DNA of 64,000 bases from an uncultured Bacteroidaceae bacterium. GTDB lineage: Bacteria; Bacteroidota; Bacteroidia; Bacteroidales; GCA-2748055. A program made the position numbers and the translations under genes. Below, one piece after another: positions 21,900 through 62,303 of the stretch (position 1 is the stretch's first letter; the number at the start of each line of letters is the position of its first letter). Location of the stretch: assembly GCA_964526475.1 (NCBI GenBank), contig CAZGKF010000002.1, positions 66,562 through 130,561 of the forward strand. The letters run 5' to 3'. Under the pieces are notes generated by a model, which was not told the DNA's origin, did not search any database, and saw only the letters and a list, made by a program, of their open reading frames with translations.

Positions 21900-22008
21900 A
21901 ATATTATAAACATTTCCGGATTTTTTCTGTCTAATCTTCCCTGACCATCCTTCGAATTCTTTGGATTAAAGAGTCTTTTTTTGTATTTTGCGGAAAACCT
22001 CTTTTATC

Positions 22009-45570: not shown

Positions 45571-45984
45571 ATGAAACTCAATACCAAAGTAAGGTACGGT
45601 TTGCGGGCAATGGTGGATATTGCTGAATATCAGCAGAATGAAGGAATACTACAAAAAGATATTGCCGAACGTCAGGAGATACCCCTTAAATATCTGGATG
45701 CTATAATAACCGGTTTACGTAACCATGGCTTGATCATAAATATACGCGGTAAACGCAGTGGGTATAAACTTATCAAACCGGCTTCCGATGTCTCGGTTTA
45801 TGATATTTATCGCGCTTTTGAACCGGAACTGACTTTGGTAAATTGTCTGTGTGAATCGCTGGACTGCAACCGCTCCGGAATTTGTCCAGCCAAAGATTAT
45901 TGGTTCGAACTGAACAAACACCTGAAGTCGCTAATGCAGAATACATCACTTCAAGAGGTAATATTGGGTACTTTCAGGTTATGA
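45571..45984 (+). CDS. Rrf2-family transcriptional regulator with a Cys cluster
   Basis: 137 aa. The N-terminus MKLNTKVRYGLRAMVDIA is the Rrf2 wHTH. The C-terminal Cys residues in NCLCESLDCNRSGIC suggest Fe-S ligation. Confidence 0.85.
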   Translation: MKLNTKVRYGLRAMVDIAEYQQNEGILQKDIAERQEIPLKYLDAIITGLRNHGLIINIRGKRSGYKLIKPASDVSVYDIYRAFEPELTLVNCLCESLDCNRSGICPAKDYWFELNKHLKSLMQNTSLQEVILGTFRL

Positions 45985-46051: not shown

Positions 46052-47191
46052 ATGACATATCTACTAACAAGAAGACGACAGGGCTATAACAGGAAGGCAA
46101 TAACTATTGCAATCTTTATCTTTTTTTTTCATGGTAGAACTTTTACTCAGGACAACTCGGCTGTTTCCGGATTTTTAAATTCGGGCAATGCTTATGCCAC
46201 TATGTTTTTCGAGTACTATTACATACATCAGGGCGATGATACTTACCCGGGGCGTTCACAATTTGCCAAAAACAAAACAGGTGATAATGCATTTTCTTTC
46301 CGAAGGGTTTATTTAGGTTATCAGCACACTTTTTCTGATAAATTCTCAGGCAAAGTTCAGTTCGAAGTGACCGACAGGACGATTCTTGGAGGAGGTCAGC
46401 GGGCACCATTCTTAAAAGAAGCCAATTTGATCTGGAAAGACTTTTACCCAATGGCCGATTTAATTATTGGTCATAGCCTCACTCCCATTTGGTCAATAGA
46501 AGGCGCTGAATTTATTTGGCAATACCGGTCCATAGAACGTACCATTGCAGATATGCGCGGCCTGCGCTCATCCAACGACTCGGGCATCAGGATTAAAGGG
46601 AGCTTTAACCAATCACGAACATACGGGTATAACTTTATGGTGGGGAATAATAACGGTGCCCGGCCCGAGAACGATAAATTCAAACTGGTTTATTTTAACT
46701 TATGGTCAAAGTTTTTCAATAAAAGATTTTACCTCGAAATATATCAGGATTACAATAAGGCTGCTGAAAACAGGCATATTACAACCACAAAGGGGGTTTT
46801 TGCATGGAAAACCCCAACCTACACGCTTGCTGCCGAAATGGTAAATCAAGATCGGGGCAGATTTGGGGCTGATAATGACGATATCATCATTCAGGGCATT
46901 AGTATCTTTGCCCACGCCAACATTTTGAATAATAATTTAAGGGCTTTCGGGCGCTTCGACTCTTACAACCCCGATGTTAACTTCTTTGCAGGTCATTATG
47001 CCACTGATGCTATAAAACCCTTCGATGAAAAGTTCTATACCTTTGGCCTGGATTTTACTCCTCATAATAATATCCATGTAATGCCAAATATCTGGATAAA
47101 CTCATATAAAAACAAGATGGACAGTCAGGAAACCCCAAAAACTGAGATTGTAGCCAGACTTACTTTTAATGTTAACTTTAAACAGAAATAA
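46052..47191 (+). CDS. Putative outer-membrane porin (phosphate-selective porin O/P-like)
   Basis: 379 aa with alternating beta-strand-like pattern, aromatic girdles and a C-terminal ...RLTFNVNFKQK. Family assignment is tentative. Confidence 0.4.
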   Translation: MTYLLTRRRQGYNRKAITIAIFIFFFHGRTFTQDNSAVSGFLNSGNAYATMFFEYYYIHQGDDTYPGRSQFAKNKTGDNAFSFRRVYLGYQHTFSDKFSGKVQFEVTDRTILGGGQRAPFLKEANLIWKDFYPMADLIIGHSLTPIWSIEGAEFIWQYRSIERTIADMRGLRSSNDSGIRIKGSFNQSRTYGYNFMVGNNNGARPENDKFKLVYFNLWSKFFNKRFYLEIYQDYNKAAENRHITTTKGVFAWKTPTYTLAAEMVNQDRGRFGADNDDIIIQGISIFAHANILNNNLRAFGRFDSYNPDVNFFAGHYATDAIKPFDEKFYTFGLDFTPHNNIHVMPNIWINSYKNKMDSQETPKTEIVARLTFNVNFKQK

Positions 47192-47253: not shown

Positions 47254-48171
47254 ATGCAATTAACCAATAATTCTATGGGAAAATCAGAAAATAAAGACAA
47301 ACTCGCACGTCGTACGTTTTTGCGAAGTGCACTATTAACAGGTGCCACAGCCGGACTGGCAACTGCGGGTGTGATAGTTTCGCGTACTGGGAAACAGGGC
47401 GATACGCCTCTTGGTGAAGATACTATCCGCCTCATTTCAGAACCAGATACAATAAAACTCAATGAAGAATCGGATGTCCTGCTTCGAATGCAGGCAGAAT
47501 TGCGCACTGCGCTGAAAAAACCAGTTGAACAACGCAAATGGATTATGGTGATTGATACCCGTAAATGCGTGGGGTGTCACGCCTGCACGGTAGCATGTAT
47601 TGCTGAAAACAAGTTACCACCGGGGGTTGTTTACCGGCCGGTTGTTCAGGAGGAGTTTGGCAGGTATCCAAATGTTCAGTTGCGTTTTTTTCCCAGACCT
47701 TGCATGCAATGTGAATCCCCTTCGTGCACTACCGTATGTCCGGTAAAAGCCACCTGGAAACGGGAAGACGGAATTACAGTTGTTGATTACGAAAAGTGCA
47801 TTGGCTGCCGTTACTGCCTGACAGCTTGTCCTTACGGGGCAAGAACGAGCGACTTTGGGGAATATTACACTCAGGGAACACCTGAATTACAACCTTATGA
47901 GCTTCTTCCTAATAATGAGTATGGCAAAGCCTGGAACCGGTCAGAGGGGCATAGTTCACCCAAGGGCAATGCACGTAAATGTCATTTTTGCCTCCACCGT
48001 CTCGATGAAGGGCTTTTGCCACAGTGCGTTACTACCTGCATTGGCCGTGCTACCTATTTTGGCGATGCCAATAACCCTGAAAGCCTGATATCGGAACTTT
48101 CACGCTTACCGAACCAGATAAAGCTTCTCGAAGAAAAAGGGACAAAACCTAATGTCATTTATCTTATCTGA
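47254..48171 (+). CDS. ttrB: Tetrathionate-reductase-type 4Fe-4S ferredoxin subunit
   Basis: 305 aa with the twin-arginine-like [17 protein letters not shown]. Four Cys groups are present ([41 protein letters not shown]...CVTTC). Confidence 0.7.
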
Positions 48172-48177
48172 TCGGTC

Positions 48178-49320
48178 ATGGATAATAAAACACAAAATAT
48201 ATTGAAATTGATCTGGGCGCTCTTATTCATCATTGGATCAATAGCCCTGATCACTAAGTTCGCCACCGGTGAACGGTTGGTTGGTTACGGAAGCTACGTA
48301 CCTTGGGGGCTTTGGGTCGCCCTGTATTTCCATTTTGTGGGAATAGCAGGTGGAGTTTTTGTGATTGGGGCAGGTGGTTACATCTTGAACCTTCCCGGCT
48401 TTCGCGAGAATATCCGTTCCATCATGATCATTGCTGCTTCATCTGTGGTTGCAGGACTTTTATCTATCTGGCTTGACCTGGGACAGCCTTTCCGGTTCCA
48501 AAATATATTCATGTCTCCAAACTTTGGGTCAATGATGACATTTAATGCATGGTCTTACACCGCTTTTCTTATTATGATGGCTGCTATTTTTTACTTATCA
48601 TTTAAGAAAAATAACATCTCTGATTTAAATGACCGCACAGGCTGGTTACTTCCAATAATGATTTTAGGGATATTCATCTCAGTGGCTTTCCCCAGCCAAA
48701 GCGGTTCTTTCTTTGGGGTTGTGGATGCTAAACCATTCTGGAACTCGGGTCTTTTGTCTGTTATGTTCCTTACTTCGGCTATTACTTCGGGGGCAGCCGT
48801 TTTAATGTTTTATTTTACGGTTATTTCAAAAAGTGCCCGGCCAGATGATGCAACATTCAACTACTTGTTAAAAGTCCTGGTTGGCGGAATCCTGGCGTAT
48901 CTGGCCTCTGAATTTGCTGAATACAGTATTGCTTACTGGTCGCCCAATTCACATACCTTCGAAGCGGCAAAACTGGTTATTCAAGGGCCATTCTGGTGGG
49001 TATTCTGGTTAGTGCATATCGGTGGTGCAATTTTAGCACTGGTAATGCTTTTTACATTGAAAACGAAAGCATCGTATGGCATTGCAGCGTTCATCATCGC
49101 GGTAACTTTTGTTTCGGCTCGTTTGAATGTGTTGATTCCGGGGCAGAGCATTGAACAGCTTCACGGACTTAGAGAAGCTTTCTCGCACGATCGTTTAAGT
49201 TTTGTTTATACAGCGACTAAACTCGAGTACCTGGTGTCTTTTTTCATCGCGACCTTGCCTGTCGGGATGTCATACATCGGGATTATCTTATTGAGAAAGT
49301 TTGAGGCAATAATAAAATAG
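48178..49320 (+). CDS. ttrC: NrfD/PsrC-family integral membrane quinol-interacting subunit
   Basis: 380 aa, about 9-10 TM, located between the FeS and catalytic subunits. Confidence 0.65.
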   Translation: MDNKTQNILKLIWALLFIIGSIALITKFATGERLVGYGSYVPWGLWVALYFHFVGIAGGVFVIGAGGYILNLPGFRENIRSIMIIAASSVVAGLLSIWLDLGQPFRFQNIFMSPNFGSMMTFNAWSYTAFLIMMAAIFYLSFKKNNISDLNDRTGWLLPIMILGIFISVAFPSQSGSFFGVVDAKPFWNSGLLSVMFLTSAITSGAAVLMFYFTVISKSARPDDATFNYLLKVLVGGILAYLASEFAEYSIAYWSPNSHTFEAAKLVIQGPFWWVFWLVHIGGAILALVMLFTLKTKASYGIAAFIIAVTFVSARLNVLIPGQSIEQLHGLREAFSHDRLSFVYTATKLEYLVSFFIATLPVGMSYIGIILLRKFEAIIK

Positions 49321-49328: not shown

Positions 49329-52300
49329 ATGGACAAAAAAAATCAAAATATATCACGCAGGGGTTTTCTGGGGAAAGGTGCTTTATTGGGAACAGGTTTG
49401 GGCATTTTACCTGCTTCAAACCTGCTCGGCGCAAATGAGGGAAAAATCCTGAAGAACAAAAGAGAAGATGTAGATTATCAATTAAATAATCCTGAGAACA
49501 TCATGTATTCGGTATGCTTGAATTGTAATACCGGTTGTGGAATAAAATGTAAAATTCAGGAAGGAGTATTGGTGAAAATTGATGGAAATCCATACAATCC
49601 ATGGACCATGGTTCCTCACTTACCCATGAGTGCCAAAATGGATGAAACGGCAATAGTTGATGGAGGGCTTTGCCCAAAAGGCCAGGCAGGTGTGCAAATA
49701 GCCTATGACCCATACCGCATTCGCAAAGCGCTTAAACGTTCCGGTAAGCGGGGTGAGAACAAATGGATAAGCATTCCTTTCGATCAGGCCATTACAGAAA
49801 TTGTTGAAGGGGGCAATCTTTTTACTGAAGTTCCCGGTGAGGAAAACCGAAAAGTAGAAGGTTTACGTTCCATCATGGCACTAACGGATAAAAAGGTAGC
49901 CAAAGAGATGTCCAAAAGCGTTCAGGCAATTTGGGACGAAAAAGATGAAATCAGGAAAGCCAAATTGGTAAATAATTTTCAACAAACTTTTACCCACCAT
50001 CTTGAAGCACTTATTGACCCGTTGCACCCCGATTTGGGGCCAAAAAACAACCAGTTTGTTATCGCCTGGGGACGGTTAAAAAACGGACGCAAGGAGTTTA
50101 TTTCAAAATTGGGTGAAGCTTTTGGTACCACCAACCTTCATGGTCACACTACCGTTTGTCAGGGTTCCTTGTATTTTACCTGCAAAGCCATAAGTGAACA
50201 ATACATTGGCGGAAAGTTTAGCGGGGGTAATAAATTCTACTGGCAGACTGATATTGAACATGCCCGTTATATTTTATTTGTGGGTGCCAACCTGTTTGAT
50301 GCCAACTATGGGCCTACAAACCGAACAGTGAGGTTAACTAAAAACCTGGAAAGTGGCTATACAAAAATTGGTGTGGCTGATCCAAGGTATTCAAAACTTG
50401 CAAGCAAAGCAGAAACATGGCTGCCCATTAAGCCCGGGCAGGATGCAGCCCTGGCCTTAGCGATTATGCAATGGATGTTTCAAAATGAACGATTCGATAA
50501 GAAATTTCTTGCCAATGCCAATAAGGCTGCGGCAATTGCATCAGGAGAACCAAGCTGGACAAATGCATCGCTGCTTGTTGAAATGATCGATGGTGTACCT
50601 GGAAAACTACTGCGGGCTTCTGATCTTGGGCTCTGTTCCCCCGCTCAAAAATCACTTACCGATGGCACAAAATACGTAGAAAAATATTTGGTCGCTTCGG
50701 TAAACGGAAATCCGGTAAAAGTAGATCCAAACGATGATGCGTTTGCCATTTATGGCGATTTGTTTGTTGACAGGATTTTTACAAGAAAAGATGGTACGAA
50801 AGTAGCAGTGAAGTCGGCACTTCAGCTCTTAAAAGAAGAAGCCAATAAATATTCGTTTGCTGATTGGTGCGAGTTGGCAGGACTCAAGGAAAAAGATGTT
50901 GAAAAAGTGGCCAGGGAGCTTACCAGCTATGGCAAACAAGCATCAGTTGATATTCACCGGGGAGTAGCACAACACACGAATGGCTTTTACAATGTATTTT
51001 CATGGATGAGCGTGAATATGTTACTGGGCAATTATGACTGGCAAGGGGGTATGTCCAAAGCCACAACTTATAAGTATGATGGTTCAGGCGGAGGAAAATT
51101 TAACCTGAAAAATAATCCGGGTAAGATTCAAACCTTCGGCATCAGCAGTATCCGGCATGACATTGATTATGAAAAAACAACATTATTTGAAGGATACCCC
51201 GCGAAACGAAACTGGTACCCGCTTTCGAGTGATATATACGAAGAGATTATTCCCAGCATCGGTGAAGCATATCCTTATCCCGTTAAAGCACTTTTCACCT
51301 ATATGGGTGCACCCACTTACTCCCTGCCTGCCGGTCATACAAATATTGAGGTACTTACCGATTTGGAAAAACTTCCCCTGCATTTTACCAGCGATATACT
51401 TATTGGCTCCACCTCCATGTATGCCGATTATATTTTCCCCGATCTATCCTATTTGGAGCGTTGGGAGTTTCAGGGTTCCCACCCTAACATGATCTGCAAG
51501 GTGGAAAACATAAGGCAACCTGTTATTTCCCCCATACCTGAAACGGTGAAAGTTTATGGCGAAGAAATGCCTGTTTCAATGGAAACCACCTTAATGGCCA
51601 TTAGCGAAAAACTTGGGCTGGAATCGTTTGGGAAAAATGCCTTGGGGGATGGCATAGATTTTACCCGTCCTGAAGATTTATACCTGAGAGGTGTAGCAAA
51701 TATTGCCCTTGGAGATGCCCCCGGGAAAGAAGTCCCGGATGCCGACAAACGCGAATTGGAAATTTTCAGCCTCGCCCGTCGGCATTTGCCCAAAACGGTG
51801 TTTGATGAGGCAAGATGGAAAACTATTGTTGGCGAAGATATGTGGCCAAAAGTCGTTTACTTGCTTAACCGTGGAGGCCGGTATGCTGAAGCCGGGACAA
51901 ATGCCGATGGTAAGTTGACCAATAAATATGGCGCTTACATGAATTTATACCAGGAGAAAACAGCAGAAAAGAAATATTCAGGAACAGGAAAACCTTATTT
52001 TGGTTTACCGCAGTATATTCCACAGAAGAACTACGCAGGTGAAACACTTGAAAAGTTAAGTGAAGGGTACGATTTACATTTGATCACAAGTCGTACCATA
52101 ACGCAAACCAAATCCAGAACTGTATCAGCATACTGGCTTGAAGGAATATTACCGGAGAACTCCATTATAATAAATGCTCTTGATGCTGAAAGACTGGGCT
52201 TTGATGATGGTGAGGAAGCCAGGATTGTAAGTGCAACCAACCCAGAAGGAAAATGGGATTTTAAAAATGGTAAAACGAAGTTTATTATAGGGAGAATAAA

Positions 52301-52547
52301 AAAAACGGAAGCCATACGCCCTGGAATTATAAGTTTTTACCTGGGTTTTGGTCATTGGGCCACCGGAGCAGATGATGTGGAAATTAATGGGGAAATTGTA
52401 AAGGGCGACCCCCGGCGTGCTAAAGGATTTCATGCTAACGCCGTTATGTGGACAGACAGCTCTTTAAAAAATAATACCTGCATGGTTGATCCCGTAGGTG
52501 GAAGTGTTTCGTTTTACGACACTAAAGTTAAACTGGTTAAAGTATAA
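49329..52547 (+). CDS. ttrA: Molybdopterin (bis-MGD) oxidoreductase catalytic subunit, tetrathionate reductase TtrA-like
   Basis: 1072 aa with Tat signal SRRGFLGKGALLG. The N-terminal FeS motif is CLNCNTGC...CPKG. Its size (over 1000 aa) and the B-C-A gene order match Salmonella ttrBCA rather than psr/phs (A-B-C) or arr (A-B). Confidence 0.65.
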   Translation: MDKKNQNISRRGFLGKGALLGTGLGILPASNLLGANEGKILKNKREDVDYQLNNPENIMYSVCLNCNTGCGIKCKIQEGVLVKIDGNPYNPWTMVPHLPMSAKMDETAIVDGGLCPKGQAGVQIAYDPYRIRKALKRSGKRGENKWISIPFDQAITEIVEGGNLFTEVPGEENRKVEGLRSIMALTDKKVAKEMSKSVQAIWDEKDEIRKAKLVNNFQQTFTHHLEALIDPLHPDLGPKNNQFVIAWGRLKNGRKEFISKLGEAFGTTNLHGHTTVCQGSLYFTCKAISEQYIGGKFSGGNKFYWQTDIEHARYILFVGANLFDANYGPTNRTVRLTKNLESGYTKIGVADPRYSKLASKAETWLPIKPGQDAALALAIMQWMFQNERFDKKFLANANKAAAIASGEPSWTNASLLVEMIDGVPGKLLRASDLGLCSPAQKSLTDGTKYVEKYLVASVNGNPVKVDPNDDAFAIYGDLFVDRIFTRKDGTKVAVKSALQLLKEEANKYSFADWCELAGLKEKDVEKVARELTSYGKQASVDIHRGVAQHTNGFYNVFSWMSVNMLLGNYDWQGGMSKATTYKYDGSGGGKFNLKNNPGKIQTFGISSIRHDIDYEKTTLFEGYPAKRNWYPLSSDIYEEIIPSIGEAYPYPVKALFTYMGAPTYSLPAGHTNIEVLTDLEKLPLHFTSDILIGSTSMYADYIFPDLSYLERWEFQGSHPNMICKVENIRQPVISPIPETVKVYGEEMPVSMETTLMAISEKLGLESFGKNALGDGIDFTRPEDLYLRGVANIALGDAPGKEVPDADKRELEIFSLARRHLPKTVFDEARWKTIVGEDMWPKVVYLLNRGGRYAEAGTNADGKLTNKYGAYMNLYQEKTAEKKYSGTGKPYFGLPQYIPQKNYAGETLEKLSEGYDLHLITSRTITQTKSRTVSAYWLEGILPENSIIINALDAERLGFDDGEEARIVSATNPEGKWDFKNGKTKFIIGRIKKTEAIRPGIISFYLGFGHWATGADDVEINGEIVKGDPRRAKGFHANAVMWTDSSLKNNTCMVDPVGGSVSFYDTKVKLVKV

Positions 52548-52570
52548 TTACCAGGTTTAGTAAATGATTA

Positions 52571-52691
52571 TTACTCCGAGTTATGGTTTCTAATGCTAAA
52601 TGTAATGAAACCAAAACCGATGGGACAGACGGGAAACCTGCTGTCCTCCCGATTTGCGTCTGTGGCGTAATGAATTTGGAAAGGAGCAGTA
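52571..52691 (+). promoter_or_regulatory. Molybdenum-cofactor (Moco/Tuco) riboswitch-like aptamer
   Basis: The conserved Moco-motif strings occur in order: ACUCCGAG (52573-80), ACGGGAAAC (52629-37), GUCCUCCC (52643-50), GGAAAGGAG (52678-86). Supporting hairpins are ggtttc/gaaacc (52585-90/52607-12) and gacag/ctgtc (52624-28/52641-45). Confidence 0.65.
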
Positions 52692-52776
52692 AATATTTTT
52701 CAGTCATTGTAAGCATTCCGAAAGGGACAAAATTGTTCTTTTCCGGTTAGTTGTTCTATGACCGAAAAAACAAGTA

Positions 52777-52810
52777 CTCCTCTTTTCTATGCGAAAAGAG
52801 GTTTTTTTTT
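52777..52810 (+). terminator. Intrinsic terminator acting as the riboswitch expression platform
   Basis: cctcttttc-tatgc-gaaaagagg is followed by nine T (52802-52810). It lies 17 nt before the ATG at 52827. Confidence 0.6.
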
Positions 52811-52826
52811 ATTTTCAGAAAGCACG

Positions 52827-54554
52827 ATGAAAAGCGATGTGACATTGAGCGATACCTGGCTGAAGGCCTCCATACTGGGCGCAACATGGGCTGCCTCCGA
52901 AATTATCTTAGGAAGCTTTCTGCATAATTTACGTATCCCATTTAAAGGCAATATCCTGACTACTATCGCTTTTATCCTGCTAATAGCGGTTAGTTACAAA
53001 TGGAATGACCGTGGATTATTCTGGCGCTCGGGGCTGGTTTGTGCATTAATGAAGACCATGTCTCCCAGTGCGGTAATTTTTGGTCCTATGGTAGCCATTT
53101 TTATGGAGTCGCTTCTGCTTGATCTTTCAGTGAGACTTTTAGGCCGGAACGTTTTAGGCTTTTTGTTAGGATCAGTAATTGCTATGTCGTGGATATTAGC
53201 ACAAAAGATATTCAACTATATACTTTTCTATGGGCATGGTCTGATTGATATCTATAGCCAGCTTATGATATTTATTGAAAAACAGTTGCAATTTCAATTC
53301 AATCTGGTTTGGGCGCCCATTGTTATATTGCTGGGCATTAATCTCCTTTTTGGCCTTATTGCTGTTGCTTTGGGTATGTATGCAGGACGAAACCTGATAA
53401 ACGAATCTAATACCTTAGAAAAAGCTCAGGGATTTAAGCAGCACGACCTGCCGGTTCAAAAACCAGGGCATTTCCCTTACTCGGTGCCATGGCTGATTGT
53501 AAATATCGCAGTGCTATTGGGTATGTTGTTTATTCTAAACAGAAGCCCTTTATGGCTTTGGGCCCCAACCACAATTATCGTAATCTCTGTATGGAGCCAT
53601 CGCTACGGTCGTGCTTTACGACAGCTATCCAAACCTAAATTCTGGGTATTCTTTGTGGGTATAACAATGGTATCCGCTTTTATAATCACTGCTATCCAAA
53701 ACAATGGAGACAACTGGGTGCAAGGATTGCTCGCGGGCTTGCAAATGAATTTCAGGGCAGCAATTGTTATTAGCGGATTCACTGTTCTTGGAACAGAGCT
53801 TTACAATCCAATAATCAGGCAATTTTTTTCCCGAAGCACCTTTAAACAATTGCCTGTGGCTTTAAATCTGGCATTTGAAACGCTCCCTTATGTTATCGGT
53901 AAATTACCCGATGTTAAAAGCATTCTAAAATATCCTGTTACTGTTATCAGACTATTGGTCAATCACGCGGAAGATCGGTTTAAGGAGCTGAAAAGCATTC
54001 AGAAGAAGCCTGTTTTTTTAATTACCGGGGATAAATCAGAAGGTAAAACACGATTTACTAAAGAACTCATTGAGTCTTTACAATCTGGAAAAATATCGGT
54101 TGGAGGAGTACTCTCCTGTAAAATAACAATTAATGGAACTACCTCGGGCTATGATCTTATTGATATTGCTACTGGCGAAAGGATGCAATTTCTTAAAATA
54201 AACGGGGAATTAACTTCACATAAAGTTGGGAGGTTCGAAATTAATTCACAAACATTATTACAAGGGAAACAAATTCTTCACCCATCAAAGCTTTCAATGC
54301 ATGATGTTGTAGTTATTGATGAGACAGGCAAATTGGAAGTTCAGGGAAAAGGATGGGCCGATAGTATTGAAGGAATCCTGAAAGCAAATAGTCATCCATT
54401 AGTTATAACCGTCAGAACTGATTTTATCAACGCGGTCATCGAAAAATTTGGTCTTGAAAACCCTCTTATTCATCGCGTTTCTGATAGCAATAGTCATCAG
54501 GTTGCAAATAATATTATTGAGGCATGCATAGAAATGAAGAGATTACCGGAATAA
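52827..54554 (+). CDS. Fusion protein: polytopic membrane domain of about 390 aa plus a C-terminal THEP1/NTPase_1-type P-loop NTPase
   Basis: The start is placed at 52827 (MKSDVTL) because the track start at 52758 would span the terminator. Walker A is ITGDKSEGKT and Walker B is VVVIDETGKLE. The GYDLIDIATGE and HKVGRFEIN blocks resemble THEP1. Confidence 0.55.
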   Translation: MKSDVTLSDTWLKASILGATWAASEIILGSFLHNLRIPFKGNILTTIAFILLIAVSYKWNDRGLFWRSGLVCALMKTMSPSAVIFGPMVAIFMESLLLDLSVRLLGRNVLGFLLGSVIAMSWILAQKIFNYILFYGHGLIDIYSQLMIFIEKQLQFQFNLVWAPIVILLGINLLFGLIAVALGMYAGRNLINESNTLEKAQGFKQHDLPVQKPGHFPYSVPWLIVNIAVLLGMLFILNRSPLWLWAPTTIIVISVWSHRYGRALRQLSKPKFWVFFVGITMVSAFIITAIQNNGDNWVQGLLAGLQMNFRAAIVISGFTVLGTELYNPIIRQFFSRSTFKQLPVALNLAFETLPYVIGKLPDVKSILKYPVTVIRLLVNHAEDRFKELKSIQKKPVFLITGDKSEGKTRFTKELIESLQSGKISVGGVLSCKITINGTTSGYDLIDIATGERMQFLKINGELTSHKVGRFEINSQTLLQGKQILHPSKLSMHDVVVIDETGKLEVQGKGWADSIEGILKANSHPLVITVRTDFINAVIEKFGLENPLIHRVSDSNSHQVANNIIEACIEMKRLPE

Positions 54555-55093
54555 TACTGGCTGGTGGTAAAAGCACCAGAATGGGCATCGACAAATCAAA
54601 CTTGTTGTTCCGTGGAAAAAGATTGATAGAGTATCCCTATGAGCTGATGCGGGAGAAGTGTCAAAAAATAATTATAAGCACTAATACCAGCAGTTTAAAA
54701 CTGCCGGGGGTAAGCTATGTGCCCGACAACTACAAGGATATAGGTCCACTGGCCGGACTGGAAGCCGGATTAAGGCTTTCAGATACCCGGTGGAATTTTG
54801 TTTTGCCCTGCGACATGCCTTTTGTTAATAGTGAATTATTCTCAGTCATGCAGGATGAACTCGATGGTTACGATTACATAGTTCCCCAGACTGCTGATGG
54901 AAAGGTAACTCCATTGGCGGGGTTTTTCAACCGCAATATTCTTAATGTAATCGTTCAGCAAATTAAGTCCGGCGATTATAAAGCAGGAAACCTTTTAAAA
55001 AGGTTAAAGGTGAAATATTTTCACACCACGAACAATCTTGTTACAGTAAACTTCAATACCCTAAACGATTTGGAGCCCTTTCTCGATAAATAA
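54524..55093 (+). CDS. mobA: Molybdenum cofactor guanylyltransferase
   Basis: 189 aa with GIILAGGKSTRMGIDKSNL and GPLAGLEAGL...LPCDMPF signatures. Overlaps the upstream gene by 31 nt. Confidence 0.8.
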   Translation: MHRNEEITGIILAGGKSTRMGIDKSNLLFRGKRLIEYPYELMREKCQKIIISTNTSSLKLPGVSYVPDNYKDIGPLAGLEAGLRLSDTRWNFVLPCDMPFVNSELFSVMQDELDGYDYIVPQTADGKVTPLAGFFNRNILNVIVQQIKSGDYKAGNLLKRLKVKYFHTTNNLVTVNFNTLNDLEPFLDK

Positions 55094-55120
55094 TCTACAA
55101 TAAAACTACTCTTTTCCAAC

Positions 55121-57088
55121 ATGAAGTATGTAATTATAACATTCCGGTTAATTTTTCTCGCGCTTGGCGTACATTCACAAGCAACAAGCGATTCAATTAA
55201 ATATAAAATGTATTTTCTGGGTGAAGTGGTTATTAGTGAGCATATTGATAAAAACACACTATCGGCGGATGAGATCCGAAAAAACAATGCTAATGATGTA
55301 AGTTCGGCTCTGAATTTAATGCCTTCTGTGGTAATAAATAAAGTGGGCAATCGAAACGAAAGTACAGTGTATATAAGAGGATTTGATATTCGCGGCATTC
55401 CTGTTTTTATTGATGGTATTCCGGTGTATGTGCCCTACGATGGGTATGTTGATTTGGCACGTTTTACTACCTATGATATATCGGGAATTGATGTTTCAAA
55501 GGGATTCTCTTCCATGATGTATGGTGCCAATACTATCGGTGGGGCCATTAATTTAATAAGTGCGAAACCAAAAAACCGCCTGGAAATTGATACCAGATTG
55601 GGTATGATGAGCGGTAAAGGATACGACACCAAAGTAAATATCGGTAGTAATATGGGTAAAATGTATTTTCAAGCTGGTCTTTCTATCCTTGAAAGAAAAT
55701 TTTTTCCCCTTTCTGCACATTTTGACACTACACCTACTGAAACAGATAATAAACGCGACAATTCAAATCGAAAAGACATGAAAGGAAACTTTAAAATAGG
55801 CTATACTCCCAATGGCAGCGATGAATACGCGATTAATTATATTTATTCGCATGGCAGCAAAGGAAATCCGGTGTATTTGGGTCATGATGACAATATGCCT
55901 CTTCGTTACTGGGATTGGCCATATTGGGATAAGCAGAGCCTTTATTTTATCTCTAAAACAACCCTGGGAACAAACTCGTATCTTAAAACCCGTTTCTATT
56001 TTGATCAATTTAAAAACAGGCTGGATAGTTACGATGATGAAAGCTATTCATCCCAAACAAGAGGCTATGCTTTCACGAGTTTTTACGATGATCATACCCT
56101 GGGAGGTAATCTTGAGCTGGTGAGCAATTTGGATAATAAAAATACGGTGAAATTCTCTGTTCACCTTAAAAACGATAATCATAGTGAGCATAATGCAGGA
56201 GAGCCACTAAGAAGAGTTGCCGATAATACCATCTCATTAGGTATCGAGCATATTTTAAAGGCCGGTGACAAACTAAGTTTTATACCCGGTTTTGCTTACC
56301 ACCTGCGTCAAAGCTTGCAGGCAGATAATTATAATCCGGCAGATCAATCTATTTCTCAATTTCCTAAAAATACCAATGATGCTTTTAACGCGCAATTGGG
56401 AACCTACTATCGAATTTCAGATTTTATAAGAATGAATTTCAATATGGCATATAAAACCCGTTTTGCCACCATGAAAGACCGATATTCATACCGATCGGGA
56501 AGGAGTCTGGCTAATCCTGGTTTGCGATCGGAATCGGCTTTGAGTTTTGAATATGCAACAAGTTTTTCTTTGGGTGAAAAATTAGCGTTAATACCTGAAA
56601 TTTTCTTCACCCGACTTAACAATACCATTCAAATGGTGGACAATGTAAGAGGGAATCTTTCGCAAGTACAAAATACAGGCAAGGCAAACTATACCGGAGC
56701 CGACATCAGTTTGATTTATACTGCTATAAAAAAACTAAGATGGCACACCTCCTATTCTTATATCAAACGGGAGAATTTGAGTAATTCCGACATTCTGTTC
56801 ACCGATATTCCGGAACATAAAGTTCTTACTTCTTTAGAGTACCTGTCTGCAGAAATAATCAATGGAAATCTCACGTTCGAATATAATTCCGGACGCAATT
56901 CATCAAGTGATGGCTCCAGGATTTCTTCCGCTTACTTTTTAACAAATGTCAATATATTTTTTAGTTTATCAGAACACTCCAACATAGAAACCGGAGTAAA
57001 CAATATTTTAGATAAAAACTATACGATTGAAGAAGGCTATCCCGAAATGGGACGCAACTTTTATTTCGCACTGAATTTTACTTTTTAA
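55121..57088 (+). CDS. TonB-dependent outer-membrane receptor
   Basis: 655 aa with a signal peptide. The plug domain contains VYIRGFDIRGIPVFIDGIPV, and the terminal strand is GRNFYFALNFTF. Confidence 0.85.
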   Translation: MKYVIITFRLIFLALGVHSQATSDSIKYKMYFLGEVVISEHIDKNTLSADEIRKNNANDVSSALNLMPSVVINKVGNRNESTVYIRGFDIRGIPVFIDGIPVYVPYDGYVDLARFTTYDISGIDVSKGFSSMMYGANTIGGAINLISAKPKNRLEIDTRLGMMSGKGYDTKVNIGSNMGKMYFQAGLSILERKFFPLSAHFDTTPTETDNKRDNSNRKDMKGNFKIGYTPNGSDEYAINYIYSHGSKGNPVYLGHDDNMPLRYWDWPYWDKQSLYFISKTTLGTNSYLKTRFYFDQFKNRLDSYDDESYSSQTRGYAFTSFYDDHTLGGNLELVSNLDNKNTVKFSVHLKNDNHSEHNAGEPLRRVADNTISLGIEHILKAGDKLSFIPGFAYHLRQSLQADNYNPADQSISQFPKNTNDAFNAQLGTYYRISDFIRMNFNMAYKTRFATMKDRYSYRSGRSLANPGLRSESALSFEYATSFSLGEKLALIPEIFFTRLNNTIQMVDNVRGNLSQVQNTGKANYTGADISLIYTAIKKLRWHTSYSYIKRENLSNSDILFTDIPEHKVLTSLEYLSAEIINGNLTFEYNSGRNSSSDGSRISSAYFLTNVNIFFSLSEHSNIETGVNNILDKNYTIEEGYPEMGRNFYFALNFTF

Positions 57089-57198
57089 TACAAACTGTTC
57101 CCTGTCCCTGCGTTCAGAAGAAAAGATGAAAATGTAATAAAAATTATTTTTTTTTGTATTTTAAATATCGTATGTTTACGACATTAGAAATTAAGATT

Positions 57199-57582
57199 AT
57201 GAATAAATCAGAAAAATTTGACCCATCCTTACAGGAATTGTCTCGCTTTGCAAAGGCAATTGCTCATCCAGCCAGGCTGGCTATTTTGGAACATCTTGCT
57301 GAGACTAAAACCTGCATATCCGGTGATATATCCGATTTTCTTCCATTGAGCAGGACAACAGTTTCCCAACACCTTAAAGAACTCAGGGATTTGGGATTGA
57401 TCCACGGCACAATAGATGGTCTTAAAGTAAACTATTGTCTTGATCATTCTGTCATTGAAACTTATCTCTCCATGTTTGATTCTTTTTTTGAACCCATAAA
57501 ATCAGTCAACGTGGAATGCCTGAACGGCCATCATCATGTTAAAAAATCAAAGCGTGAAAAATCGATAGTAATAAACAAATAA
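57199..57582 (+). CDS. arsR: ArsR/SmtB-family metalloregulator
   Basis: FAKAIAHPARLAILEHL...CISGDISDFLPLSRTTVSQHLKELRDLGLI is the wHTH with a Cys near the alpha3 metal site. The start at 57199 is preferred, but 57172 is possible. Confidence 0.8.
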   Translation: MNKSEKFDPSLQELSRFAKAIAHPARLAILEHLAETKTCISGDISDFLPLSRTTVSQHLKELRDLGLIHGTIDGLKVNYCLDHSVIETYLSMFDSFFEPIKSVNVECLNGHHHVKKSKREKSIVINK

Positions 57583-57593
57583 AATTCATTAAA

Positions 57594-57971
57594 ATGAGAA
57601 CCTTAAAGAATCAATTGACTTTTTGTTTATTTGGCGGAATCCTGATTATTGCGAATGCATGCACTAATACACATGCGGAAAATAAACAATCCCCCGAAAA
57701 CACGCCGGTTGTTTCCGCAAATGCGGAAAGCAAAGCAGAAACCACCCCTAAAAATAATTCTGAGTTTCAAAGCGCCCTGGATAAAGCAAAGAGTGCCGGA
57801 CAAGCAGCGTTTGTAGTTGTTACAGGGAATGGAGTTGCTGAAACTGAAAAAGTAATACTGAGTGTTCAGAAACTCTCAAACGCAAGCCGCTTAAAAAAGG
57901 GAATTCTTCATTTCCATTATTCAGACAGAACAGCTGCGGCACAGGACCAGGATGTTGCGGTTAAATTATAA
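57594..57971 (+). CDS. Hypothetical lipoprotein within the ars cassette
   Basis: 125 aa with a signal peptide and lipobox IANAC. No recognisable family. Confidence 0.35.
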   Translation: MRTLKNQLTFCLFGGILIIANACTNTHAENKQSPENTPVVSANAESKAETTPKNNSEFQSALDKAKSAGQAAFVVVTGNGVAETEKVILSVQKLSNASRLKKGILHFHYSDRTAAAQDQDVAVKL

Positions 57972-57983
57972 ATTTTTATAATC

Positions 57984-58430
57984 ATGAAAATAACAGAACA
58001 AGGTATGAAAGTTTTAATCCTTTGTACGGGAAACAGTTGCCGTAGCCAGATGGCTCATGGCTTTCTGCAAAGTTTTGATAAAAATCTTATGGTTCATTCA
58101 GCGGGTACAGACGCTTCCGGTAAGTTAAACCAGAAGGCTGTTTCAGTCATGAAAGAAATCGGAATCGATATAAGTCACCACACTTCAGATTCTGTTGAAA
58201 AATACCTGGGAGAAGAATGGGACTTTGTGATTACGGTATGTGGGGGAGCAAACGAAGCTTGTCCTGCTTTTTTTGGTAAGGTAAAGCATCGCCTGCATAT
58301 TGGTTTTAACGACCCTTCGCATGTTACCGGAACGGATGATTACATTTGGAGTGAGTTCCGTCGTGTAAGGGATGAGATTAAGGAGGAATTTTACAAGCTG
58401 TATAAAGAAGAAATTGAACCTCAATTATAG
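57984..58430 (+). CDS. arsC: Arsenate reductase, LMW-PTPase (thioredoxin-coupled) type
   Basis: 148 aa with P-loop CTGNSCRS (CX5R). A downstream Cys pair VCGGANEAC is equivalent to the Cys82/Cys89 relay. Confidence 0.85.
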   Translation: MKITEQGMKVLILCTGNSCRSQMAHGFLQSFDKNLMVHSAGTDASGKLNQKAVSVMKEIGIDISHHTSDSVEKYLGEEWDFVITVCGGANEACPAFFGKVKHRLHIGFNDPSHVTGTDDYIWSEFRRVRDEIKEEFYKLYKEEIEPQL

Positions 58431-58472
58431 AATGGTATTAAAAATATTACAAAACCTATAAACCATATAATT

Positions 58473-58844
58473 ATGAAATCACTTGCAATATTGGGAACCG
58501 ACCTGTCACCAGCTTCGGATAAGCTAATAGAATGTGCACATGAGTATAGAAATCTTGGAATAAAGAAAATAACTCTTGTCCACGCATTGGGATTAAAGCA
58601 CATACAGGCATTTGAAGATATATTGAGAAAGGATACTGACGAGAAACTTGAAGTGCAAAAAAAGAAACTGGAAGAACAGGGTTTTGAGGTTGACTACAAA
58701 GTCAAGCCCCACCTGGCAAAAGATGAACTACAGAAGCTGGCAGAAGATTCCGGCGCTGCTTTGATTATTATCGGCACTCATGGCATTCCGATTCCAACGT
58801 ATTATTTGTTCCATTACCAGGAAATTAGATCTGTTTTTTCGTAA
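58473..58844 (+). CDS. Universal stress protein family, apparently C-terminally truncated
   Basis: 123 aa, Usp-like up to ALIIIGTHG. It then diverges (IPIPTYYLFHYQEIRSVFS) where Usp proteins carry the G-x2-G-x9-GS(V/T) ATP-binding end. Confidence 0.45.
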   Translation: MKSLAILGTDLSPASDKLIECAHEYRNLGIKKITLVHALGLKHIQAFEDILRKDTDEKLEVQKKKLEEQGFEVDYKVKPHLAKDELQKLAEDSGAALIIIGTHGIPIPTYYLFHYQEIRSVFS

Positions 58845-58949
58845 GTTAACCAGTTTAAGCATAAATTAAACAGCTATCGCTACAGGTGGTGATTAAAATT
58901 TATCATTTTTTGAAATAATAATTTGTAAAACCGATAAATAATAATTCAA

Positions 58950-59978
58950 ATGATTCAAAAGAAAACAATAAGCTTTTTCGATAAATACTTAACTGTCTGG
59001 GTTGCTCTCGGAATCCTTGCAGGGATTCTGATTGGTCATCTGGCAGGTGACAGCATCGAAATAATAAGCAGCATGGAGATAGCAAAGGTGAATATCCCGG
59101 TTGCCATCCTTATCTGGCTGATGATCTATCCCATGATGCTTCAGATCGATTTTACCAGTATCCGGAAGATTGGTAAAAAGCCACGGGGTGTGATCTGGAC
59201 TGTAGTTATCAATTGGCTCATTAAGCCTTTCACCATGACCTTTTTTGCCTGGATATTTTTTACTAAACTTTATTCCGCATGGATCGACCCTGCGCTGGCT
59301 GGAGAATACATTGCCGGGGCGATTCTGCTGGGAGCAGCACCCTGCACAGCCATGGTATTTGTATGGTCATATCTTTCTGATGGAGATCCAAATTACACAC
59401 TTGTACAAGTCTCGGTGAACGACCTGATTATTCTGGTGGCGTTTATCCCCATAGTTGGATTATTGCTTGGTATAACCAATGTGGTGATCCCTTATGACAC
59501 CCTGGTAGCAAGCATTCTAATTTTCGTCGTTATACCGCTTGTTGCAGGAGTTATAACCCAGCGGATTTTGTTAAAATCGAAAGGTGAAGAATGGTTTAAA
59601 AAGGAATTTCTGCCTAAACTTAAACCGGTGAGTATAGTGGCACTACTTGTTACCCTGGTATTCCTTTTCGCGTTCCAGGGACAAAACATCATCAATAATC
59701 CCCTGATTATTCTTTTAGCAGCTGTTCCTTTGGTAATACAGACCTACTTTATTTTTTTCATTGCCTGGTACGGCGGAAAAAAACTCAAACTCCCCTACCC
59801 TGTTTGTGCTCCTGCAGCCATGATCGGAGCCAGCAACTTCTTTGAACTGGCCGTGGCTGTTGCCATTGCATTATTCGGGTTACAGTCACCGGCTGCCTTA
59901 GTAACGGTAGTAGGGGTTCTGGTTGAAGTGCCTGTGATGTTGTCGCTGGTGGCTTTTGCGAACAGGAGGAGATATTAA
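58950..59978 (+). CDS. acr3: ACR3-family arsenite efflux transporter
   Basis: 342 aa, 10 TM. Blocks IQKKTISFFDKYLTVWV, MIYPMM and GAAPCTAMV (conserved Cys) are typical of Acr3. Confidence 0.9.
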   Translation: MIQKKTISFFDKYLTVWVALGILAGILIGHLAGDSIEIISSMEIAKVNIPVAILIWLMIYPMMLQIDFTSIRKIGKKPRGVIWTVVINWLIKPFTMTFFAWIFFTKLYSAWIDPALAGEYIAGAILLGAAPCTAMVFVWSYLSDGDPNYTLVQVSVNDLIILVAFIPIVGLLLGITNVVIPYDTLVASILIFVVIPLVAGVITQRILLKSKGEEWFKKEFLPKLKPVSIVALLVTLVFLFAFQGQNIINNPLIILLAAVPLVIQTYFIFFIAWYGGKKLKLPYPVCAPAAMIGASNFFELAVAVAIALFGLQSPAALVTVVGVLVEVPVMLSLVAFANRRRY

Positions 59979-60417: not shown

Positions 60418-61152
60418 ATGACGTATTTTTACGTCAAAAGTATAGATATGAAATATTCAAACTTCTTAAATAAACAGTGGAAGAAAGAATCGATATATGA
60501 ATTTTCAGCAAGCTTCTTTTTTGTGCTCTTGTATTTCCTCTCCATTGAACATGCTATTGATCTGTTTTCGTCATCCTTAACAGTTTTCGGATCGGTTATT
60601 TATACAATACTCTATTTTTTGATTGTTACAATACTTTCTAAAATGGCATCAGTACACATTCTGCCTGTTGTCTCGTTTATTGAATATCTCAATACGGGTA
60701 GCTTGTACTATTTCTTTTGCAAGGTGGCCAACCAGTTTATGGGTGCATTGTTGGCTATAATACTTCATATTTGGGTTTTAAGGTATGGTTCTGATTCTGA
60801 TCTCAGCAATTACGCCACACCATTAAATCCATTCTTTATTGGATTATTTACCGGTTTCCTATCACAAATCATATATTTATTGCATCTTATTCTTTGGCGA
60901 TTGCAAATATACCGGATTAGCCGATACTTTCTATTTTCAGTTGGGTTGGGATTCGTGTTTGCAATAATCTCTGTTATTGGAAGTATTACCCTGCTAAACC
61001 CATTCGGTTTACTATTGCACTACCTGATAAGCGGAAATCCAATTACGATTAAACTCATATTTACGGGTAGCATGGTGCATATTTTAATACCCATGATATT
61101 TGTAAGTGGCACACATTATTTTCTAAAAGGTTTTGTTATTAAAGGTTTGTAA
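60418..61152 (+). CDS. Six-TM membrane protein, possibly a divergent MIP/aquaporin-family channel
   Basis: 244 aa. SVHILPVVSF sits where MIPs have GAHxNPAVTF. A second-half LLNPFG sits where MIPs have the second NPA. Size and TM count fit. Tentative. Confidence 0.3.
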   Translation: MTYFYVKSIDMKYSNFLNKQWKKESIYEFSASFFFVLLYFLSIEHAIDLFSSSLTVFGSVIYTILYFLIVTILSKMASVHILPVVSFIEYLNTGSLYYFFCKVANQFMGALLAIILHIWVLRYGSDSDLSNYATPLNPFFIGLFTGFLSQIIYLLHLILWRLQIYRISRYFLFSVGLGFVFAIISVIGSITLLNPFGLLLHYLISGNPITIKLIFTGSMVHILIPMIFVSGTHYFLKGFVIKGL

Positions 61153-61175
61153 TAGCCCTACAATAAAAATGCACA

Positions 61176-62303
61176 ATGGATAAATTAAGAAATGTAACCC
61201 GTCAACCCAGGCCTTTAGACGTTTTTGATGCTTTTGCAAACGAGAAAAAGTTCCTGATTCTTATTTTAGCAGGATTTATTTTACCTGCAGTTTTTATTAA
61301 AAGTAACTCATTTTTAATGTGGACGGGGTTTTTGTTTGCCTCTTATGCCGCAGTTTCCAATGATAGCATTCAATCATTGGGGACATTTATTGAAAGCAAT
61401 AAGAAAAAGAAATGGTGGGTACTCTGGCTATTTGTAGGCACTATATTTCTGTTAACAGTTGCCTTTAGCTGGTTTTATTTCGATGGAGATGTAACCTATC
61501 AGCGCTTGTTGGATTCGAATGGAGTATCGAAATATCCACACCCGGAAAAATTCAATTATTTTCAGGTTATAGCGCCACTTGTACTTCTAATATTAACAAG
61601 GCTTCGGATGCCTGTCTCAACAACATTCCTGTTACTGAGTGTGTTTAGTGCCACATCCTCCGGCATCAGTTCAATGGTTTTAAAAAGCTTATCAGGTTAT
61701 GCTCTGGCTTTTATTCTATCATTTTTGATTTGGTACCTGAGTTATAATTTTATTAAGAAATATTTTAAGAAACGAAAAACACACATTGCATGGACTCTGG
61801 TTCAATGGACTGTCAGCGGTTCACTTTGGGCAACATGGGTCATGCAGGACGGAGCGAATATCGCGGTATATCTACCAAGGCAACAGACCCCTTTACAATT
61901 CGTCATTTTTTCAGCAACCATATTTTTGGGATTAGGTTTGATTTTCTATTTACGAGGAGATAAAATTCAACGGATTGTCAGCGAAAAAATCAGAATTTCT
62001 GATGTCCGGGCCGCAACATTAGTCGATTTCACCTATGTGTTATTGCTTATTTATAAACTATTTATCAGTACCGTTCCAATGAGCACTACCTGGGTATTTC
62101 TGGGGGTTATTGGCGGAAGGGAAATAGCTGTATCTCTTTCAAGAAGTAAAAAGGGGAAAAAGCATAAAGTAAAAGCCGGCAGAATGATTATCAGGGATGT
62201 GGCTTATGCACTTTTCGGCCTCCTTATTTCAGTTGCATTGGCATCGGGAGCTAATAACTCCATCCGGGGTGAAATTGTAAACTTTATAAAAAGTCTGTTT
62301 TAA
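61176..62303 (+). CDS. Polytopic membrane protein with PiT/PHO4-like repeat motifs
   Basis: 375 aa. AVSNDSIQSLGTF resembles GANDVANxFGT. MPVSTTF and VPMSTTWVFLGVIGG resemble the PiT P(V/I)STTHxxxGAxxG repeats. Divergent. Confidence 0.35.
   Translation: MDKLRNVTRQPRPLDVFDAFANEKKFLILILAGFILPAVFIKSNSFLMWTGFLFASYAAVSNDSIQSLGTFIESNKKKKWWVLWLFVGTIFLLTVAFSWFYFDGDVTYQRLLDSNGVSKYPHPEKFNYFQVIAPLVLLILTRLRMPVSTTFLLLSVFSATSSGISSMVLKSLSGYALAFILSFLIWYLSYNFIKKYFKKRKTHIAWTLVQWTVSGSLWATWVMQDGANIAVYLPRQQTPLQFVIFSATIFLGLGLIFYLRGDKIQRIVSEKIRISDVRAATLVDFTYVLLLIYKLFISTVPMSTTWVFLGVIGGREIAVSLSRSKKGKKHKVKAGRMIIRDVAYALFGLLISVALASGANNSIRGEIVNFIKSLF

Follow-up and report, generated by a model that had tools for sequence, protein, structure and literature searches.

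A riboswitch-controlled membrane–NTPase fusion, MobA and TonB-dependent receptor as a candidate molybdenum/tungsten supply operon in a Bacteroidaceae genome

What does a riboswitch of the molybdenum cofactor (Moco)/tungsten cofactor (Tuco) type control when the genes behind it encode no ABC transporter? The question is raised by a 64,000-nucleotide stretch of DNA from an uncultured Bacteroidaceae bacterium (GenBank assembly GCA_964526475.1, contig CAZGKF010000002.1, positions 66,562 to 130,561 of the forward strand; hereafter the window), in which such a switch stands between the gene for a TtrA-like oxidoreductase and three tightly packed genes. These encode a membrane protein fused to a THEP1-type P-loop NTPase (the fusion), a MobA-like transferase and a TonB-dependent receptor (TBDR). 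Bacteroidota rank among the main anaerobes of guts, sediments and digesters, and a link between tungsten enzymes and gut metabolism is now recognised, yet little is known of how the phylum acquires molybdenum and tungsten (Mo/W). An initial annotation, made from the sequence alone, had proposed that receptor and fusion form an uptake route supplying the TtrA-like enzyme. Aptamer, terminator, fusion, mobA and receptor are all present where it had placed them (Table 1), and it is established what the parts are, how the switch is built, that the NTPase motifs are intact and that the genomic surroundings are linked to Mo/W. The family to which the fusion belongs very probably serves Mo/W cofactor supply. 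The whole reading, namely a cofactor-repressed accessory operon directly behind a TtrA-like Mo/W enzyme of the bis-molybdopterin guanine dinucleotide type, we hold with belief and doubt in equal parts.

The presumed Moco aptamer is strongly matched by the covariance model RF01055, which is covered in full (model positions 1–135) with 59.5 bits against a gathering score of 36 (E 9.7e-12); the start that had been annotated, 52571, falls 9 nt within this match. All 15 model positions of P3, the stem that is the signature of Moco sensing as opposed to the Tuco-associated class, are deleted in the alignment, a feature absent from the initial annotation. Regulski et al. split the motif into P3-containing and P3-lacking classes and associated the latter with Tuco metabolism (PMC2408646). 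By this published correlation the window aptamer would fall into the tungsten-cofactor-associated class, with Tuco as its putative ligand. In Eubacterium limosum, P3-less aptamers are treated as Tuco sensors; they control WOR1, tupABC, two iron transporters and focA, and some of them act via terminators (PMC11725836). The window aptamer is likewise followed by an intrinsic terminator, found by a terminator scan 26 nt before the ATG at 52827, whose hairpin has an energy of -10.7 kcal/mol. An antiterminator of -15.4 kcal/mol can form instead, through base pairing between the terminator's 5' arm and the 3' P1 strand (UGGAAAGGAGCAGU), and the expression platform can thus adopt two mutually exclusive structures, the terminator or the duplex of P1 strand and 5' arm. 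Judged by sequence, aptamer and terminator are arranged as in a classical OFF switch that works through transcription termination, for which ligand-dependent control is predicted. The order ttrA, aptamer, terminator, fusion is also found in two related loci, L001 (67% protein identity) and L024 (86%). In both, the aptamer is conserved and equally devoid of the P3 positions, P2 carries compensatory changes, and the terminator is kept.

The position of the switch is unusual as well. Since the aptamer begins only 14 nt past the stop codon of ttrA and no Bacteroidota -7 box (TAnnTTTG) was found on the plus strand from 52083 to the aptamer, the switch is most likely an internal attenuator of the ttr transcript, a point on which the initial annotation had not remarked. 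A promoter of its own for the three-gene operon was rejected, as there is no -7 box and a sigma-70 scan did not rise above shuffled controls. The idea that Moco riboswitches might accompany the fusion across Bacteroidota did not hold. Rfam gathering scans of L001–L024 and 12 further loci, together with our own covariance model, a narrow one made from three sequences only and run over ~1.25 Mb, found the riboswitch in the window, L001 and L024 and nowhere else among ~100 related loci. All three belong to the TtrA-linked clade, and the riboswitch as a family-wide trait was hence rejected.

The first gene behind the switch indeed encodes a polytopic membrane/THEP1 NTPase fusion of the annotated length, and the division into two lobes near residue 200 corresponds to a disordered loop at about residues 198–212. 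A 598-aa reading frame that starts mechanically at 52758 was rejected, since it would include the terminator and overshoots the N-termini of homologues. Residues 397–563 match Pfam NTPase_1 (PF03266) with 70.3 bits (cut-off 23.9), beside a weaker match to DUF2478. With phmmer the domain matches Aquifex THEP1 (1YE8, E 1.6e-3), the Walker A (GDKSEGKT) and Walker B (VVVIDETG) motifs being aligned, and Foldseek returns 2I3B and 1YE8 with TM scores of 0.71 and 0.75. By gathering score, Walker motifs and THEP1 fold it is a member of PF03266; against PRK13695, the NCBIfam model of stand-alone THEP1, it scores 82 bits, below the equivalog cut-off of 156. Across 130 sequences, residues G401, G406, K407, D498 and E499 hardly vary, and on the integrity of its motifs the NTPase looks functional.

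The membrane domain, in contrast to the NTPase, is without known family or fold in Pfam, NCBIfam and the PDB. Pfam and NCBIfam gave no match, relaxed Pfam scans included, and the best hit of a PDB profile search was a designed coil (E 0.17). A full-length AlphaFold (AF2) model of the fusion based on a diverse alignment (pLDDT 91.0, pTM 0.87) matches PDB entries in Foldseek via the NTPase domain only, all others having E > 0.01 and TM <= 0.35, and a separate model confined to the membrane domain (pLDDT 78) had no Foldseek match in the PDB. Alignments to the membrane part, from transporters and receptors, do not exceed TM 0.2, and over both models their best E is >= 3e-3. No significant likeness of sequence or structure to ECF, MFS or other structurally known transporter folds was seen, nor any match of the fusion to ABC_tran or ABC permease families in Pfam and NCBIfam. 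Across Pfam, NCBIfam, PDB profiles and Foldseek with both models (pLDDT 78 and 91), residues 1–390 thus match no characterised family, in line with the initial annotation, which knew of no characterised transporter of this architecture. An ECF-type build, with an S-component-like N lobe and an EcfT-like C lobe, was rejected because Foldseek and PDB profiles were empty; the sole hint came from one homologue, whose match to CbiQ (E 6.5) is noise. An internal duplication of the two lobes was rejected too (hhalign probability 0.2%, no repeat). Within the domain, E25 and H33 are invariant and N34, R67, K76, S79, S81, R310 and E324 nearly so, and the conserved polar and charged residues lie inside helices.

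The fusion has more than 1758 homologues. The 120 matches listed are all ~550–590 aa long, stem mostly from metagenome-assembled genomes (MAGs) of Bacteroidales, Saprospiraceae, Salinivirgaceae and Draconibacterium, and carry only the names 'THEP1' or 'DUF2478'. When the membrane domain alone was compared with 1.84 billion cluster representatives, 1039 matches at E <= 1e-3 and 290 at E <= 1e-30 were obtained, each match being a cluster at 50% identity; among the 1039 are stand-alone membrane-domain proteins of ~390–410 aa without NTPase. The family is large, mainly from Bacteroidota and without earlier characterisation, and a literature search found no paper on the fusion family, on DUF2478, on THEP1 in connection with molybdenum or on TonB-dependent Mo/W uptake in Bacteroidota. 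A cultured host exists in Lutibacter sp. B1 (L007). Three loci (L005, L006 and L024) are labelled as Deltaproteobacteria, Chloroflexota and Desulfobacteraceae MAGs, yet their fusions are 46–86% identical to the Bacteroidales-type window protein; these labels are probably wrong, the bins being contaminated. Two stand-alone membrane homologues were looked up, both on short contigs. One was uninformative; the other (L109 747-2941; P0201, 406 aa, 32% identity) is followed by tatC, a single case.

The genomic context of this family carries the link to Mo/W. It was examined in 24 genome loci, 80 metagenome loci and several look-ups, which gave 99 unique loci whose neighbours were classed by tblastn and open reading frame (ORF) clustering and then by Pfam/NCBIfam annotation. 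The commonest partner, missed by the initial annotation and absent from the window, is a DUF364/DUF4213 gene, which lies directly upstream of the fusion in 40 of 86 loci, often with overlapping stop and start codons. An orthologous TBDR (50–61% identity) is found just upstream in 12 of 62 loci. Approached from the receptor side, all three TBDR orthologues at 57–60% identity are followed by DUF364 and fusion, whereas one at 49% identity is not linked to them. In 14 of 58 loci a protein of 110–120 aa with the N-terminal repressor domain of ModE (ModE-N; TIGR00637, E 1e-17 to 1e-23) is encoded nearby, the usual order being ModE-N, TBDR, (DUF364), fusion, and in L023 a membrane-only gene without NTPase stands directly behind the ModE-N gene. 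Further partners are Psr/Ttr-type oxidoreductases with Fe-S and NrfD subunits (6/42 loci), MocA/DVU_1551-like transferases (5 loci), XdhC-type maturation factors (4 loci) and a cluster of TrsS radical-SAM protein, DVU_1556 methyltransferase and DVU_1553 ligase (3/41 loci). Recurrence of mobA and TonB receptor genes beside the fusion, as the initial annotation had envisaged, is seen for both, with MobA adjacent in only ~6% of loci (4/69). Altogether, 42 loci have flanks of 3.5 kb or longer on either side, and 27 of them contain one Mo/W-linked partner or more. Two or more types of molybdoenzyme, with their maturation genes, are tied to the family: DMSO reductase-type enzymes together with MobA, and xanthine oxidase-type enzymes together with XdhC and a MocA-like transferase. 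Two kinds of Mo-type regulator, riboswitch and ModE-N, are tied to it as well. As its clients come from different molybdoenzyme families, the step they have in common would be provision of the metal or the cofactor core.

Other arrangements around the fusion were also observed. In L004 2795-15026 (identical to L035), L083 and L058, DUF364 and fusion lie inside a cluster of NCBIfam families named after Desulfovibrio proteins: a pyridine-nucleotide-disulfide/dicluster protein (NF045663), a TrsS radical SAM (seleno)protein with DUF5714 (NF045646), the DVU_1556 methyltransferase, the DVU_1553 AMP ligase, a DVU_1551/MocA-like transferase and an XdhC-type maturation factor of aldehyde oxidoreductases. 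An ABC ATPase and an ABC-2 type permease are encoded directly upstream of TBDR, DUF364 and fusion in L028 5397-7108, L110 3231-4943 and L112 3265-4973, which are probably one lineage; a GH97 gene precedes the ABC pair in L028 and L110 and lies further upstream in L112. A gene for an aldehyde dehydrogenase of the L-piperidine-6-carboxylate-dehydrogenase type stands beside ModE-N and fusion in L071 (= L077), L079 and L080, and another is present in L004 12002-13552 (NF050084, 771 bits).

Which part, then, would the fusion play in Mo/W supply? The best candidate for a single reading is an inner-membrane Mo/W carrier. It is suggested by the position of DUF364, which adjoins the fusion as it adjoins ABC Mo/W importers elsewhere, by the pairing of the fusion with a dedicated TBDR, and by its being switched on at low cofactor, since the OFF logic fits genes needed then. 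The conserved charges within helices and the nearly invariant Walker A/B motifs support this as well. Because the membrane-only form in L023 keeps the ModE-N context, the Mo-linked function would reside in the membrane part. That receptor and fusion cooperate in Mo/W supply, as had been proposed initially, is thus independently supported by the context of ~100 loci, both in the survey of fusions and from the receptor side; transport, direction and cargo are what we infer, and for the fusion as an importer of Mo/W species we see the chances as evenly balanced.

The operon might work as follows. Transcription would arrive, most likely, from the upstream unit of Rrf2 regulator, porin and ttrBCA. 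When cofactor is plentiful, the aptamer would close P1, and the hairpin 52779-52801 with its U9 would end transcription; when it is scarce, pairing of the 3' P1 strand with the terminator's 5' arm would allow read-through into the three accessory genes. The receptor would carry a Mo/W species, either trace molybdate or tungstate or a chelated form, over the outer membrane; its passage over the inner membrane would be the task of the membrane domain, a step powered or gated by the NTPase. MobA would finally convert the Mo/W-molybdopterin (MPT) to the dinucleotide cofactor of the Tat-exported enzyme. The TtrA-like protein is the likely client of the three-gene operon.

Several points weigh against this picture. 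The loci are metagenomic and phylogenetically non-independent, and their neighbours were called by crude ORF and tblastn methods; 15 of the 42 well-flanked loci are without a Mo/W-linked neighbour; the riboswitch is limited to three closely related loci, and the adjacency of MobA is rare. No transporter was found to resemble the fusion in sequence or structure, so the case for transport is built from architecture and context. As small oxyanions, molybdate and tungstate usually pass through porins, and a TBDR is unexpected for them. Of DUF364 enzymes only one has been characterised, and it makes an azetidine by cyclising SAM (PMC12930334). Furthermore, the weak family matches of the receptor are to haem, siderophore and B12 receptors, its orthologues are labelled 'iron complex outermembrane receptor' by their sources, and the P3-less riboswitches of E. 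limosum also control iron transporters (PMC11725836).

The last of these points lead to iron. Receptor and fusion might import iron or an iron chelate and be regulated together with the cofactor, since TtrABC and other Mo/W enzymes contain many Fe-S clusters. The two transporters controlled in E. limosum are iron ABC transporters (PMC11725836), the best among the weak receptor matches are those to haem and siderophore receptors, FeoB or FeoAB is encoded a few kb from the fusion in 5 loci, and the published contexts of DUF364 include an iron transporter (PMC2954201). The receptor itself, however, gives little hold for such a cargo. It is recognised by its Plug domain (75.7 bits), its residues 44–655 align to TIGR01785 and its orthologues carry PF00593, but all substrate-specific family models score far under their curated cut-offs, the nearest solved structure by sequence is BtuB in the plug region only, and the 'iron complex' labels are generic and automatic. 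Moreover, the genes that recur beside the fusion are ModE-type regulators, MobA, MocA-like transferase, XdhC and molybdoenzymes rather than Fur-type regulators or iron genes. An iron cargo is rather unlikely in our view, somewhat behind the maturation role considered below. Cobalamin or haem as cargo was rejected, as no cobalamin riboswitch lies upstream of any module; a cobalamin riboswitch (RF00174, 90.9 bits) does occur in L090 12688-12905, ~4.4 kb 3' of the fusion and past a Psr-like oxidoreductase and an Fe-S gene.

The second gene of the operon raises another alternative. Its product has MobA as best NCBIfam match, although it scores 109 and 101 bits with the two MobA equivalog models against cut-offs of 164 and 152 (MocA, 48.6 bits). 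The overlap of mobA with the fusion gene, which ends at 54554, amounts to 31 nt and the receptor gene starts 27 nt after mobA, exactly as annotated. An NTPase domain encoded immediately 5' of mobA with such an overlap resembles a mobB–mobA pair. The fusion could accordingly be a membrane-anchored factor for cofactor maturation or insertion, its NTPase acting like MobB beside MobA and perhaps coupling cofactor loading to Tat export. Fusion, MobA and a molybdoenzyme follow each other in L002, L003 and L021; MobA precedes the fusion in L102, where the molybdoenzyme lies upstream on the opposite strand, and a MobA fragment does so in L081, a locus cut upstream of that fragment. XdhC and MocA-like maturation genes near the fusion elsewhere and the one stand-alone homologue adjoining tatC would fit as well. 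Against it, the MobB domain PF03205 has no match in the window protein (one homologue matches at E 3e-3, over the P-loop only), MobA is a far rarer neighbour than DUF364 or TBDR, and the NTPase-less form in L023 keeps its ModE-N context. A 390-aa domain of ~10 helices with conserved intramembrane charges also exceeds what an anchor needs. We regard a maturation factor as unlikely, though ahead of the other alternatives, and retain the carrier as the better candidate.

DUF364, the commonest partner, opens a further possibility. Azetidine carboxylate formation from a derivative of S-adenosylmethionine (SAM) is nicotianamine-type chemistry. The first and only characterised DUF364 enzyme cyclises methylated SAM to azetidine carboxylate (PMC12930334), and a system resembling cntOLMI can be imagined in which DUF364 makes a SAM-derived chelator, the fusion exports it and the TBDR recaptures the metal complex. 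The recurrent order TBDR, DUF364, fusion with overlapping genes would suit this, and a TBDR suits a chelate better than a free oxyanion. Yet the window and several TBDR–fusion loci are without DUF364, the module would then encode no inner-membrane importer, and an archaeal DUF364 gene sits in an import operon: in Methanococcus maripaludis it lies within the modABC operon and shows cofitness with nifH (bioRxiv 10.1101/2024.03.05.583561). A metallophore system of this kind is improbable, more so than an iron cargo.

The DUF364 structure paper describes genomic links to tungstate, molybdate, vanadium and iron transporters and to ABC systems generally, and predicts a flavin- or pterin-type ligand (PMC2954201). 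The cargo could also be a pterin: Moco, Tuco, MPT or a precursor would be salvaged, with MobA as the only remaining biosynthetic step and a regulatory logic like that of B12 and thiamine riboswitches, which control a TBDR together with an importer of the inner membrane. In the window a cofactor-sensing riboswitch precedes a small, BtuB-like TBDR, an inner-membrane protein and MobA alone. The initial annotation had noted that modABC is missing from the window; among the window ORFs examined (Pfam, NCBIfam and reading of translations, a check that was not exhaustive) we recognised no ModABC-like, moa or moe gene, and by the same reading no mog gene in the 64 kb. Besides, a TrsS-type radical SAM enzyme with PF23545, a domain named after a pterin methylase, is encoded nearby in L004 (= L035) and L083. 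On the other hand, one window without moa genes is uninformative on the genome, ModE-type regulation and the DUF364–modABC link indicate an oxyanion, and Moco is extremely labile outside proteins. Salvage of a pterin is the least probable of the four alternatives, and a metal species remains our preferred cargo for the carrier.

How does the candidate Mo/W carrier system compare with those described? FeoB and ArsAB combine a polytopic carrier with a non-ABC P-loop NTPase that is fused (FeoB) or optional (ArsB alone or with ArsA). The fusion family, with its NTPase-fused and stand-alone membrane forms, parallels them in logic, although no homology was detected and the domain order is reversed relative to FeoB. 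With ModABC, TupABC and WtpABC it would share NTP-driven Mo/W uptake at the inner membrane, regulation by Moco/Tuco riboswitch and ModE logic, and DUF364 as neighbour. It differs from them in lacking ABC ATPase, ABC permease and periplasmic binding protein, in having a THEP1-type NTPase, in a membrane domain unrelated by sequence and fold search, and in the added TonB-dependent step at the outer membrane. The C-terminal domain is like THEP1/NTPCR proteins (PF03266; 1YE8, 2I3B) in fold (TM 0.71-0.75) and Walker A/B motifs; their known members, however, are soluble single-domain proteins of no assigned physiological role, whereas here the domain is fused to 390 residues of membrane protein. We know of no transport role for the THEP1/NTPCR class. 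The cntOLMI opine metallophore operons have a similar logic of TBDR, SAM-using enzyme and inner-membrane protein, but there is no sequence relation, the window is without DUF364, and regulators and neighbours indicate Mo/W and not Ni, Zn or Co. Finally, the riboswitch has the full P3-less consensus, a terminator as OFF platform and control of cofactor-supply genes in common with known Moco/Tuco riboswitches (RF01055; PMC2408646, PMC11725836). While those control modABC, tupABC and moa genes, it controls a TBDR and a membrane–NTPase protein instead of an ABC transporter, it stands in a genome of Bacteroidota type, a phylum not in the 2008 survey (PMC2408646), and it is a probable internal attenuator close behind an enzyme gene. 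Riboswitch, MobA and receptor are hence of known kinds, the P3-less aptamer being new in phylum, position and controlled genes; the inner-membrane component could be categorically new.

More tentatively, and with less than even confidence, we propose that the membrane domain represents a new fold or class of metal or oxyanion carrier for which the THEP1 NTPase is optional, and that together with the TBDR and often DUF364 it is the main Mo/W route of many Bacteroidota, replacing or supplementing ModABC/TupABC, with a Tuco-type switch in the present lineage. If true, the uptake route would be a widespread one, represented by over 1000 sequence clusters and using an inner-membrane fold absent from the PDB, and an active outer-membrane step would be added to Mo/W uptake. 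DUF364 would gain a concrete functional setting and the THEP1/NTPCR family its first physiological role. With the window, the known range of P3-less riboswitches grows by a phylum and by a new kind of site, the interior of an operon.

The enzyme upstream of the switch belongs by sequence to the Ttr/Psr-type members of the DMSO reductase family. With NF011567, the NCBIfam equivalog model of TtrA, it scores 452 bits, below the cut-off of 1750; its closest PDB entries are PsrA (2VPW) and ArrA, and its N-terminus bears the twin-arginine motif SRRGFL. Before its subunit genes (Table 1) lies an Rrf2-family regulator gene (45571-45984) with a Bacteroidota-type -7 box just 5' at 45527. After the Rrf2 gene, a 379-aa protein (46052-47191) without Pfam or NCBIfam match heads the ttrBCA-like genes; from its sequence it looks like an outer-membrane beta-barrel porin.

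Table 1. Features of the ttr-type genes, the switch and the three-gene operon (window coordinates)
Feature	Position	Strand	Remarks
Fe-S subunit gene of the TtrA-like enzyme	47254-48171	+	Fer4_11; TtrB/DsrO-like matches
NrfD-type membrane subunit gene of the TtrA-like enzyme	48178-49320	+	NrfD; DsrP-like matches
TtrA-like Tat-exported molybdopterin oxidoreductase gene	49329..52547	+	1072 aa; Pfam domains Molybdopterin, Molydop_binding, Molybdop_Fe4S4
Moco/Tuco riboswitch aptamer, P3-less class	52562..52702	+	RF01055 (cmscan)
Intrinsic terminator (expression platform)	52779..52810	+	9-bp stem (52779-52801), 5-nt loop, U9
Fusion gene	52827..54554	+	575 aa; ATG 52827; N-terminus aligns with those of homologues
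Membrane domain of fusion, residues 1-391	52827..53999	+	all-helical, polytopic, ~9-10 helices, two lobes
THEP1/NTPase_1-like P-loop domain of fusion, residues 392-575	54000..54554	+	Pfam PF03266
mobA-like molybdenum cofactor guanylyltransferase gene	54524..55093	+	NTP_transf_3 (PF12804), E 1e-32, 114 bits
TonB-dependent receptor gene	55121..57088	+	655 aa; Plug domain, E 5e-21

Elsewhere in the window, two tRNA genes lie on the minus strand at 25113-25185 and 31098-31171 (Rfam 67.1 and 63.4 bits), and a 736-aa ORF at 21988-24198 is without Pfam match at E <= 1e-4. The receptor gene is immediately followed by a row of arsenic-resistance genes (57154-59978) encoding ArsR, a secreted protein of 125 aa, an ArsC of the LMW-phosphatase type, a universal-stress-like protein and ACR3. 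Behind the row, at 60418-62303, two polytopic membrane proteins (244 and 375 aa) are encoded that are without NCBIfam match (Pfam was not run). Genes of the ars type also lie a few kb from the fusion in four other loci, as ArsR alone (L029, L101), ArsR and ArsC (L056) or ArsR, ArsC and ACR3 (L027); their presence there and in the window may be due to chance or to a common oxyanion theme.

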